Below are positions 8,055-61,997 of a DNA stretch of 64,000 nt, piece by piece. The notes below the pieces were generated by a model, which worked only from the letters and a program-made list of their open reading frames with translations, had not been told where the DNA came from and ran no database searches. A program made the position numbers and the translations under genes. The stretch is from Waterburya sp. (GTDB lineage Bacteria; Cyanobacteriota; Cyanobacteriia; Cyanobacteriales; Xenococcaceae). Each line of letters opens with the position of its first letter. Positions within the stretch are counted from its first letter, which is position 1. Location of the stretch: positions 3,936,001 to 4,000,000 of the forward strand of contig CBDCJV010000002.1 of the NCBI GenBank assembly GCA_965217895.1, in the 5' to 3' direction.

Positions 8055-8993
8055 TTATTCTTTAACTAAACGAAAACCAAACAAAATATGGCGAGAGTTA
8101 ATTGGGCGAGTGTGTTCGTAGGCAGCGCGACAAAAACCAGGTAAATCGTCCCAACCGCAACCTTTCATAACAATGCGAGTACCATCATATTTTAACGAAC
8201 TGGTATATTCAAAGACATTTCCCGCCATATCCTCTACGCCATAAACGCTTTTACTTAGAGGAAACTTACCGATTTTACTAGTATAATTCAATCCGCTAGC
8301 TGCTGAATTAGTTGCATTATCTCGCCAATCATTACCCCAGGGAAAATATTGTCCCCCTTCTCCTCTAGCTGCTTTTTCCCATTCTTCATCCGTGGGTAAG
8401 CGGTAAGCTGCATCTGTTGTTTTTCCTTTCCAGTCGGCATAAGCTAGGGCATCTTTAGAGGAAATTAATACTACCGGATGTTGAGCAGTATTTTTGGGAT
8501 ATGTATTATTAGTCCAGAGAAATTCTTTTACTTTGGAGTAAGGGTGAACTAAAAACCCTTGTTTTTGATAATCAGCTTTGCTAATTCCAGGGACTCGATA
8601 ATTGGTAGCTTGAATAAATTCTTGGTATTCTTGGTTAGTAACTAAATTGCGACTAATACAAAAATCTGGAAGTGATGAGATTTGGCGATCGCTTTCACCA
8701 TCAAACCAACCTGTTTTACGTAGTTTCTGTTCTGCTTGCCTAATTTCTGCCTCTGTATCAGCAATTGACTCAGCCGAAATACGATAGGCATAATCTCGTT
8801 CTTGGCGATCGCTACCTAAAACAAAGTCTTCAGCAGCCACAAAAGCAAAAGATTTATCTGATGTGCATTCTTCAGGGGTTATAGCTGCTAACGATCTGGC
8901 TGATTGAAAAACGTTACAGCCGATAATTGCGATCGCTATTATGAATAAAAATATTATTTGTATGGACAACTTATTAAAATTTTTTGTAGGCAT
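8055..8993 (-). CDS. Exported formylglycine-generating enzyme (SUMF1/FGE-sulfatase) fold protein, possible lipoprotein
   Basis: VTNQEYQEF, HPVVLIS, YRLPTDEEWEKAARG, FPWGN, DMAGNVFEY and GFRL motifs. N-terminal hydrophobic stretch ends in IIGC. Start taken at M11 because the longer start overlaps a terminator-like hairpin. Confidence 0.88.
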   Translation of the reverse strand: MPTKNFNKLSIQIIFLFIIAIAIIGCNVFQSARSLAAITPEECTSDKSFAFVAAEDFVLGSDRQERDYAYRISAESIADTEAEIRQAEQKLRKTGWFDGESDRQISSLPDFCISRNLVTNQEYQEFIQATNYRVPGISKADYQKQGFLVHPYSKVKEFLWTNNTYPKNTAQHPVVLISSKDALAYADWKGKTTDAAYRLPTDEEWEKAARGEGGQYFPWGNDWRDNATNSAASGLNYTSKIGKFPLSKSVYGVEDMAGNVFEYTSSLKYDGTRIVMKGCGWDDLPGFCRAAYEHTRPINSRHILFGFRLVKE

Positions 8994-9003
8994 TATATTT
9001 TGT

Positions 9004-9040
9004 AAAAAAAATAAGGCAGCCATAAATAATTATGATTGCC
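9004..9040 (-). terminator. Probable intrinsic terminator/attenuator between NPC peptide gene and FGE-fold gene
   Basis: On the minus strand GGCAATCATA...TATGGCTGCC forms a stem (one mismatch, one G-U) followed by TTATTTTTTTT. Confidence 0.6.
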
Positions 9041-9105
9041 CAGTAACTGTGGGAGAAATCGAGATTCTATGTCATGAAGACAACTATAAATAATGTTATA
9101 TATAC

Positions 9106-9405
9106 TTATTTGCCAGCACAAGGGTTAGCTGAGGCACAGGGATTTTTCTTCCCAGCACAGGGGTTAGCCGAAGCACATGGATTAGCTGCTGCACAAGGGT
9201 TTTTCTCTCCCGCACAAGGATTAGCTGCTGCACAGGGGTTTTTCTCTCCCGCACAAGGATTAGCTGCTGCACAGGGATTACCAGCAACAACACTAAATGA
9301 ATTACTATTATCTGAAGCAGCAATAGCACTATTAGAGAAAAAAGCCGTTCCACCGATAGTTAAAATGGAAGCGGTAGCAATGGTGGCAATATACTTAAGT
9401 TTCAT
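9106..9405 (-). CDS. Secreted low-complexity Cys-rich peptide with nine NPC repeats (99 aa)
   Basis: Sec-type signal MKLKYIATIATASILTIGG...SAIA, then NPCAAA/NPCAGEK/NPCASA/NPCAGKK units. Synonymous third-position variation between repeats supports this frame. Confidence 0.85.
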   Translation of the reverse strand: MKLKYIATIATASILTIGGTAFFSNSAIAASDNSNSFSVVAGNPCAAANPCAGEKNPCAAANPCAGEKNPCAAANPCASANPCAGKKNPCASANPCAGK

Positions 9406-9630
9406 AATTTTGATTGAATTGAAAGAGTGGTTTTGATGGACACCAAATATCAAACTCAACAAAACTGAAATTTGCCTGAGATATTCATTTGTATTAACTA
9501 AGAATTGTCGAATACCCTCTCAGAAAAAAATAATTTGAATTATAGTAATTTCAGTTTTAATAAAGTGAAAGTGAAATACCTTAGCAATCTGTAATTTATT
9601 TACTACTAAGCATTTATCCTTTAAAAAATT

Positions 9631-10290
9631 ATGCCTCAGAACCTTTCAGTCAATACTAGCGATCGCCTATTTGAAGTCAACCCAGACTGCGAAAACTGGA
9701 TTGTTGACGATGATAGTTCCACCGAAGCTTATTATCCTCAAGAAAAAGAGTTGGCCGTAGATCCCTATCGCCTTTTTCGTTTTCTAACCGATTTAGAAGA
9801 TATTTTGCTGGATATACCTAATGATCGCGATCGCCTCAAAGCCATTATGCCTTTGGTGCGACATTTGTTAACCAGTTCTTATTGGTTACAGATGGAATAC
9901 GATCAACCTTCGCCTAAAACTGGCTGGTCTGTCAAAATGCTGTATCGTGAACCAGAATATCCTCTGACAGTACAGATGGTAGCTTGGCAACCAGGAAGCG
10001 TATCTCCAATTCATAATCATGGTGCGTGGGGAATCGTGGCTTTAATAAGTGGCGAAGAAAAAAATCGTTTTTGGAAGCGATCGCCAACTGCTGAACATCC
10101 CGATCGCTTAGAGTTGGTTGGAGAACAAATTTTGCAACCAGGAGAAATTATTAGCTTTATGCCTGATGCTATTCACAGCGTCGAATCCATTGGCAATGAA
10201 CCAACGATCTCATTTAATCTTTACGGTGAGACTAACTACAAACAGCGTTATGAATTTGAGGTCACAAATCATACTGCAACTAACTTTTAA
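9631..10290 (+). CDS. Cupin, cysteine-dioxygenase-like
   Basis: WQPGSVSPIHNHGAWG and IHSVE cupin His motifs; ISFNLYG. Confidence 0.8.
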   Translation: MPQNLSVNTSDRLFEVNPDCENWIVDDDSSTEAYYPQEKELAVDPYRLFRFLTDLEDILLDIPNDRDRLKAIMPLVRHLLTSSYWLQMEYDQPSPKTGWSVKMLYREPEYPLTVQMVAWQPGSVSPIHNHGAWGIVALISGEEKNRFWKRSPTAEHPDRLELVGEQILQPGEIISFMPDAIHSVESIGNEPTISFNLYGETNYKQRYEFEVTNHTATNF

Positions 10291-61439: not shown

Positions 61440-61997
61440 TTATTCAAATACTTTAGCTCCCTCAAGCACATTCGGCCACTTTTCATTTGCCGAGGAAATA
61501 TGTCCTGGAACGTCTTGCAGCCATTGCTTTTGTACGTCTTTACTGTAATTTAAATAAAGTTTATTATCAACAATTTTCCAAGCTTGGGGATCGATGGAGA
61601 CAACGTTACCTTCCGCTAAACCTTGGGCGCAATAGCCACCATATTGAGGAGCATAAGCTTCAGGATTTTTTTCAAACAATTCTTTGTTTTTCGCACTAGA
61701 AAATCTCCAGACTGCTCCTTGCCATTTGGATTCATATTGACTATCTCCTTGAACAGCTTTTCCCTCTGTGAAATAAGCGACAGGATCGGCACCTCTAATA
61801 GCTAAACCACTAGAAGATTCTGTATAAATTTTAGGTGCAGAATCCGCAGCAGCAGCGCAAGGATTGGCAGCACCAGAGCAGGGATTAACACTAGAACAGG
61901 GATTTGCACTTACTGAATTGAAACTTTGAGGAGTTCCCGCCAATCCCAAGGTAATAATTGATAGAGCAGCAATAGTGGCTAAATATTTAAATTTCAT
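61440..61997 (-). CDS. Secreted YHS-domain protein with three N-terminal NPC repeats
   Basis: AIRGADPVAYF, WRFSS, PEAYAPQYGGYCA and IVDNKLYLNY motifs. N-terminus MKFKYLATIA...NPCSSVNPCSGAANPC. Confidence 0.9.
   Translation of the reverse strand: MKFKYLATIAALSIITLGLAGTPQSFNSVSANPCSSVNPCSGAANPCAAAADSAPKIYTESSSGLAIRGADPVAYFTEGKAVQGDSQYESKWQGAVWRFSSAKNKELFEKNPEAYAPQYGGYCAQGLAEGNVVSIDPQAWKIVDNKLYLNYSKDVQKQWLQDVPGHISSANEKWPNVLEGAKVFE

Follow-up and report, generated by a model that had tools for sequence, protein, structure and literature searches.

An NPC-repeat peptide, an FGE-fold predicted lipoprotein and a divergent cupin form a conserved module that may buffer thiols in the cell envelope

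A gene for a short NPC-repeat peptide, the gene of an FGE-fold predicted lipoprotein (P0002), a divergently transcribed cupin gene and an operator-like box upstream of the peptide gene co-occur far above background. The xPC module to which they belong is conserved and apparently undescribed. The best explanation, to which we assign a probability of roughly one half, is that the locus is an inducible cell-envelope module against thiol-reactive stress, in which the NPC peptide acts as a recyclable thiol/metal buffer; the stress agents would likely be oxidants or soft metals such as copper. The functional steps of this model are all ones that we infer. The features of the window, i.e. the whole stretch of 64,000 nucleotides of Waterburya sp. 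that was analysed (contig CBDCJV010000002.1, positions 3,936,001 to 4,000,000), are the following:

8055..9023, minus strand: FGE-fold predicted lipoprotein P0002, likely start 8993 (PF03781, E 1.5e-34)
9106..9405, minus strand: xPC-repeat peptide gene P0001, 99 aa, Sec-like signal and nine NPC units
9109..9279, minus strand: repeat core of P0001, residues 43-99, nine single-Cys units of 6-7 aa
9319..9405, minus strand: predicted signal peptide of P0001, residues 1-29, MKLKYIATIA...AIA, cleavage site placed by inspection
9465..9503, minus strand: operator-like box TCTTAG-N16-TCTCAG-N5-TTTCAG, an 11-bp direct repeat that ends 59 nt before the peptide ATG
9631..10290, plus strand: cytoplasmic cupin P0003 of the thiol-dioxygenase family, with invariant H128, H130, H182, Y198 and R206
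61440..61997, minus strand: second xPC gene P0004, a signal, three NPC units and a YHS (seleno)protein domain, with a weak box (13.6) upstream

The first-pass annotation had described P0001 as a 99-residue reading frame with a Sec-type signal and nine NPC units, and both its translation and an inspection of the signal confirm this. The N-terminus is Sec-like by inspection, with two lysines, an apolar stretch (Kyte-Doolittle 11-mer maximum 1.8) and A27-x-A29. The NPC units start at residues 43, 49, 56, 62, 69, 75, 81, 88 and 94 and are of the types NPCAAA (three), NPCAGEK (two), NPCASA (two), NPCAGKK and NPCAGK, which places 9 Cys in the 57 residues of the core; the core contains no CxPxR. Only two reading frames of the 5.29-Mb genome hold at least two NPC, both of them within the window, therefore the array is not a product of chance. 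The HIP1 count of this genome puts it among the cyanobacteria. Family searches with Pfam and NCBIfam left the peptide unnamed, its score against the BufA2 model was 19.3 bits (cut-off 60), and a search of the ESM Atlas returned unnamed clusters only, with low recognition. A tblastn search of plasmids gave no match, with the low-complexity filter that applies to such a query. The 120-aa antisense reading frame at 9074-9436 on the plus strand is a shadow of the repeats.

The repeats of P0001 belong to a larger family. Its proteins carry from 1 to 19 xPC repeats whose spacing is free while the N/D-P-C-A unit is nearly fixed, as expected of independent sites. The start of the signal, M-[KR]-x-K-Y-[LI]-A, is common to free peptides, lipopeptides and fusions with YHS, DM13 and thioredoxin domains. 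The combination of signal and repeats is portable: YHS, DM13, thioredoxin (before ccdA) and COP23 domains all occur joined to it, and it also stands alone as a free or lipid-anchored peptide. No xPC-thioredoxin fusion was found in the genome of origin. Proteobacteria, Planctomycetes and others also have free NPC peptides, which are called "hypothetical" if named at all. A search of viral contigs with an NPC pattern gave 0 matches, and no RNA run was among the holders returned by a sequencing-run search. A 60-aa lipopeptide with the family signal start and a single NPC is encoded elsewhere in the genome of origin (G000:C2:4602958-4603137), and its orthologues persist in genomes that lost their multi-repeat genes. 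In a locus from another phylum (L322 7143-7934), 13 NPC units lie between the predicted membrane segments of a small membrane protein.

The partners of xPC genes are envelope thiol-redox and soft-metal proteins. Cyanobacterial neighbors include thioredoxin reductase, DoxX and DedA-type genes. Distant loci encode cupredoxin, c-type cytochromes, cytochrome P460 and peroxiredoxin-like genes with an in-frame TGA, and further MerR with a heavy-metal P-type ATPase and an ECF sigma/anti-sigma pair. Within four loci (L265, L273, L280 and L287) an exported c-type cytochrome (CxxCH) runs through a conserved TGA (NDL*N) into an NPC tail; these tails are C-terminal and lie near the FGE gene, and the TGA is likely a selenocysteine codon. 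In the peroxiredoxin-like genes of L273 and L283 a CxxC-like motif has TGA as its first codon. On plasmid NZ_CP046156.1 the order is box-peptide-DoxX-cupin, and plasmid pAQ7 of Picosynechococcus sp. PCC 7002, a laboratory strain, carries a peptide-cupin-kinase-regulator version. On NC_010474.1 (183289-183585; L308 2875-3171) RefSeq annotates an antisense shadow ORF with AQG repeats, WP_156785491.1, and the NPC lipopeptide is encoded on the opposite strand.

We examined how closely the peptide is tied to the KGCxW clade of FGE-fold proteins that contains P0002. The FGE-clade set comprised 47 genome loci (L018-L064), with a second partial locus (L065) and six weak matches left out; the background was an even sample of 301 genomes of the cyanobacterial phylum. 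The peptide profile matches 44 of the 47 FGE-clade genomes, 43 with at least two PC units and one with a single unit, and one of the three profile-negative genomes has repeats at a contig edge, so that 44 of the 47 carry xPC repeats. The phylum sample gave 32 profile-positive genomes (27 with at least two units, three without any, two not fetched). The comparison is therefore between 44 of 47 genomes and 27 verified genomes in 301, kin not being independent. Repeats lie within 2.5 kb of the FGE gene in 12 of the 47 loci, in 7 of the 33 with adequate flanks, and near 22 of 80 metagenome FGE loci. The distant metagenome loci (41-48% identity, 0-2 HIP1 sites), whose NPC-FGE contigs are probably non-cyanobacterial, show repeats in 9 of 24 cases, in 5 of 9 when well flanked, and in two lineages, against an NPC pattern background of 1/251 genomes in each of two other phyla. 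The two genomes behind that background (G490 and G849) contain no FGE-clade member, with weak generic matches in one of them. The peptide gene is upstream of, downstream of or convergent to the FGE gene in different branches of the clade (at least three gene orders on a FastTree phylogeny that carries long-branch warnings). The proposed co-occurrence of NPC peptides with KGCxW FGE proteins is thereby borne out, and we regard the genomic link as supported.

This FGE clade is present in 3 of the 301 phylum-sample genomes; therefore 24 of the 27 verified xPC genomes are without it, as judged by the query used. In three close, near-complete genomes (G019, G020 and G023; FGE proteins 85% identical), some 550 bp have been cleanly deleted; the peptide gene and the box are gone, and cupin and FGE genes stand head to head. 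No multi-repeat xPC gene was found in these three genomes, each of which keeps one lipopeptide with a single NPC. Among them the FGE gene has a dN/dS of 0.17-0.22, with 0.12-0.18 elsewhere in the genus, and it is thus under purifying selection in genomes without the peptide.

The FGE/SUMF1 fold that had been assigned to the protein downstream of the peptide is upheld by the PF03781 match and by a structural model that matches FGE-fold structures, namely ToxD, CalU17, FGE and PvdO (Foldseek E 4e-10 to T. curvata FGE); the identity to the best of these, ToxD and CalU17, is only 23-26%. A search of the ESM Atlas with P0002 likewise led to FGE-sulfatase clusters, and tblastn against plasmids gave 4 distant partial matches only. 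The gap of about 110 bp that had been given between the two genes is correct for the second ATG, at 8993 (112 bp), a start common to relatives, and not for the first (82 bp). The export signal is present and can be specified as a lipobox (IIGC, C36; Cys in 60 of the 72 near homologues that cover the site), which makes P0002 a predicted lipoprotein. No terminator-like site was found between the peptide gene and the P0002 gene, and this fits read-through from one into the other without proving it. We also considered a box proper to the FGE genes and rejected it: 9 of 104 FGE upstream regions score at least 12, and 8 of these 9 sites are the peptide's.

For site numbering, KGC[SG]W of the P0002 clade was anchored on RGASW of the human paralogue, and we take FGE S266 to be the serine of RGGS. 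With this alignment the S+3 position is D293 and the S+8 position is C298. The S+3 position, C269 in FGE, is Asp in 117 of 117 clade sequences. The S+8 position, C274 in FGE, retains Cys, as it also does in an ordinary FGE-domain paralogue of the same genome. One of the two copper-ligand positions is therefore kept, and P0002 does not have the CxxxxC pair of FGE. Cu(I) of FGE is bound by two Cys (S266, C269, C274 numbering; PMC5324649), and a true FGE requires a [C/S]xPxR client (10.1101/2021.05.21.445229). P0002 lacks such a two-Cys site, and CxPxR is found in 0 of 123 distinct xPC cores. By these two features, as read from sequence, P0002 is not a catalytic FGE. The clade has instead conserved H160, C289, D292, D293, C298, H304 and H312; compared with FGE it possesses a new Cys one residue ahead of the active-site Ser position (residue 290, Gly in P0002 and Ser in 94 of 117 clade sequences), three extra invariant His and a QGFLVH insert. 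No selenocysteine was seen at C289 or C298 in any P0002 homologue. Because of this residue set of its own, a metal or redox site of a kind other than that of FGE is plausible for the clade. P0002 thus resembles FGE/SUMF1, PvdO, ToxD, CalU17 and Tsi3 in its PF03781 fold, PvdO in its predicted export and FGE in one Cys at the C274 position, and it differs from FGE in the Asp at the C269 position and in having no CxPxR client nearby.

The first-pass annotation made no mention of the cupin P0003 or of the operator box, and these two elements tie the peptide to a wider module. Residues H128, H130 and H182 of the cupin are invariant in 25 of 25 homologues, as a three-His iron site demands. S194 is mostly kept and Y198 is invariant, and the His of the Ser-His-Tyr triad is replaced by an invariant N196. 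The structural model of P0003 (pLDDT 89) best matches the 3-mercaptopropionate dioxygenase 3MDO, and the nearest structures are 3-mercaptopropionate and mercaptosuccinate dioxygenases (TM 0.66-0.68 over the query to 3MDO; identity to thiol dioxygenases 23-24%). Arg168 of 3MDO binds the substrate carboxylate (PMC8050391), and the invariant R206 of P0003 appears to sit near that position, an equivalence by spacing only. P0003 accordingly shares with 3-mercaptopropionate, mercaptosuccinate and cysteine dioxygenases the cupin fold, the three-His site and the Tyr of SHY; unlike them it has Asn196 in place of the His and is associated with a kinase/regulator pair and with exported Cys repeats.

The cupin gene adjoins the FGE gene in 19 of the 47 FGE-clade loci, more often than the peptide does, and 24 of 24 FGE-adjacent cupins fall into one clade (support 96 in a quick tree). 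Within the phylum sample, 28 of the 32 profile-positive genomes have the cupin, and in 22 of the 27 verified ones no more than 5 kb separate it from xPC genes. The wider cupin family is found in 83 of the 301 sampled genomes, including some without xPC genes; the cupin was missing from all 9 distant NPC-FGE loci, with flanks as fetched; and it is under purifying selection where the peptide was lost. A separate cupin clade (L207-L210) has a nitrogenase-associated gene (TIGR01616) on one side and a small conserved gene on the other, and a cupin match occurs in all 37 sampled genomes of one family. Ahead of the cupin gene, at 9564-9578 of the window, there is a tandem AAGTGAAAGTGAAA repeat that G019, G020 and G023 retain where the deletion was joined and that could serve the cupin or the FGE gene as a promoter element.

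The box has the consensus TCTTAG-N16-TCTCAG-N5-CTCAG with an 11-bp period. It was found upstream of 69 of 91 xPC genes and of 0 of 91 shuffled controls, with a PWM trained on the same xPC upstream regions, many of which come from related genomes. The box of the window is the best-scoring site in the genome and the sole one above background; at a score of at least 17 a genome-wide scan returned 6 real sites vs 8 shuffled ones. An 11-bp repeat spacing is typical of OmpR/PhoB-type sites, and the box may be bound by an OmpR-family regulator. In many relatives, genes of a HAMP kinase and an OmpR-family regulator follow directly behind the cupin, and these cupin-kinase-regulator runs are divergent from xPC genes. 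The genome of origin encodes a 44% identical kinase that is unlinked and has no regulator beside it. In relatives the box is also found before xPC-thioredoxin/ccdA genes. An operon in the genome of origin that encodes a Tat-signal thioredoxin-like protein, CcdA, cytochrome b and an MsrP-like protein (L305, G000:C2:1393434-1396254) has a background-level box on each strand upstream; the site before the operon, with a score of 17.8, is kept in only 4 of 5 genus relatives and lacking in a distant one. Another background-level box (19.4) precedes a gene for a 113-aa predicted exported protein with no family match (L306, G000:C2:4460753-4461091), and an L306-like ORF adjoins the cupin in L089 and L142.

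Two kinds of known systems bear comparison with the module. Bufferins and captophorins/oxazolins are MNIO-modified, Sec-exported Cys RiPPs (PMC12452194 and PMC13097082). They share with the xPC family a signal-peptide precursor with repeated single Cys, free as well as lipoprotein forms, versions joined to other domains, neighboring DoxX and regulator genes and a proposed role in metal stress. Unlike in bufferin loci, MNIO (PF05114) has 0 matches in the genome of origin and is absent from 38 of the 47 FGE-clade genomes. Of the nine that do carry it, one has it on the contig of the peptide, about 8 kb off among unrelated genes. The repeat unit, too, is N/D-P-C-A and not EGKCG or that of Buf1/Buf2, and Pro within the repeat is not accepted by FonBC, an MNIO that has been characterised (PMC13097082). 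Because the enzyme is absent, the unit differs and FonBC rejects Pro, the xPC module does not appear to be an MNIO RiPP. "NPC" is absent from the main text and two text-form supplements of the MNIO landscape paper, whose picture tables could hide an instance, and the literature searched (subscription journals and bioRxiv supplements aside) yielded no description of NPC repeats or of this module.

The second comparison is with MrpX-YedY(MsrP), a hypochlorite scavenging system of Azospira suillum in which the Met-rich peptide MrpX serves as a sacrificial target in the periplasm and is recycled by a reductase (PMC4436054). The likeness consists in a small peptide rich in one sulfur amino acid (predicted to be periplasmic here), a dedicated stress regulator (putative here) and envelope reductases that are adjacent or co-regulated (the latter putatively so here). 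The xPC module differs in having Cys for Met, a two-component box for SigF/NrsF, and thioredoxin/CcdA, YHS, DM13, cupin and FGE-fold partners. MrpX may by analogy be considered a precedent for the buffer reading.

The closeness of the cupin to xPC genes counts against the buffer model in that a relation of substrate and enzyme would explain the 22 of 27 genomes equally well. Also against it count the kinase of the genome of origin, unlinked and with no regulator beside it, the missing xPC-thioredoxin fusion there, the background level of all its box sites but the peptide's, and the training of the PWM on the very regions that it was used to score. As the main rival to the buffer model, P0003 could be a cytoplasmic mononuclear-iron maturase that modifies each precursor Cys before Sec export, fills the place of MNIO in bufferin clusters and recognises the conserved signal peptide. 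It is the most constant cyanobacterial partner, the plasmids NZ_CP046156.1 and NC_010474.1 resemble the bufferin layout, its three His and Tyr are invariant, and the signal start is conserved across unrelated fusions; bufferin signal peptides are reportedly part of the recognition sequence (PMC12452194). We nevertheless consider a cupin maturase unlikely: its closest structures are enzymes of small thiols, its R206 is placed, by spacing, like a carboxylate-binding Arg, its family extends to genomes without xPC genes and to the nitrogenase-associated clade, selection on it persists after loss of the peptide, and the nine distant NPC-FGE loci, as fetched, do not contain it. Modification in the periplasm, by oxidation or otherwise, through the own metal site of the FGE-fold lipoprotein is close to the MNIO-like role first proposed for P0002. 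The presence of repeats in nearly all FGE-clade genomes, their adjacency in several gene orders, a link that 9 of 24 distant loci show with no cupin nearby, the predicted sharing of a compartment and the conservation of C289, C298 and three His all speak for it. We find it quite improbable, and the FGE is probably not the maturase of the peptide, as 24 of 27 xPC genomes manage without it, no more than 7 of 33 well-flanked genome loci have the peptide next to the FGE gene, selection outlasts the peptide in three near-complete genomes, no core offers CxPxR, Asp293 occupies the first copper-ligand position and an ordinary paralogue shares the Cys of the second. P0002 and the peptide may still handle metal together in the periplasm. 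A broader proposal admits either enzyme: exported metal-binding RiPPs of a new class, made without MNIO, would bear N/D-P-C-A as their substrate tag; the class would comprise free peptides and redox-protein tails under a dedicated two-component operator, with every Cys modified by the cupin before export or by the FGE clade after it. This is possible, if rather doubtful.

Two further explanations dispense with both buffering and modification. The repeats could be flexible tethers that form disulfides, or the linked kinase could read them as a signal; they are often found at a C-terminus or placed so as to separate the signal peptide from a folded domain, their copy number is free and a kinase/regulator pair is linked to them. 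However, repeat-only free peptides are common and widespread, linkers have no need of a near-invariant Cys, and the box points at the peptide gene as it would for the output of a circuit, which makes this account distinctly improbable. P0002 might also be a non-canonical activator of exported Cys-type sulfatases that adjoins the peptide by chance. It had been stated that the window contains no sulfatase, and indeed the only sulfatase match of the genome falls outside it (G000:C2:4566987-4567991, L291); this protein is of the Cys type (CCPSR) and has an N-terminal hydrophobic stretch. No canonical FGE was found in the genome despite this sulfatase, and the two other FGE-domain proteins encoded there are both without the CxxxxC pair. 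Against such a role, 21 of the 47 FGE-clade genomes, many of them incomplete assemblies, give no sulfatase match, no sulfatase was recognised among the recurring neighbors, and the link to xPC repeats holds across phyla; it is very improbable indeed.

No candidate modifying enzyme is constant, neither the FGE, absent from 24 of 27 xPC genomes, nor MNIO, missing in the genome of origin and in 38 of the 47 FGE-clade genomes, nor the cupin, lacking in all 9 distant NPC-FGE loci as fetched, and therefore an inducible, recyclable Cys buffer is favored. In the buffer model the sensor kinase and OmpR-type regulator would bind the TCTCAG direct repeat and induce xPC genes. The peptide would be exported with each N/D-P-C-A unit as one independent thiol, and these thiols would bind metal or undergo sacrificial oxidation. 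Periplasmic thioredoxin/CcdA-type proteins, often bearing the same repeats, could then re-reduce it. P0002, which would be co-transcribed by read-through from the peptide promoter, might be an accessory periplasmic metal/redox protein using C289/C298 and the three His. P0003 might act in the cytoplasm as an iron enzyme on a small thiol, whose oxidation would remove surplus thiol or tune the signal.

What emerges is a family of exported cysteine-repeat peptides and tails that is widespread and has so far escaped annotation. In addition there are two new clades, one of the FGE fold and one resembling thiol dioxygenases, and a sequence that is a candidate operator. Since pAQ7 of PCC 7002 carries the peptide, cupin, kinase and regulator together, the question of their function is directly testable. 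Should either enzyme modify the repeats, the chemistry of the peptide would be new. If the buffer reading is true, the module would be to Cys what MrpX is to Met, would parallel the bufferins without needing an enzyme, and would show how cyanobacteria protect their periplasm.
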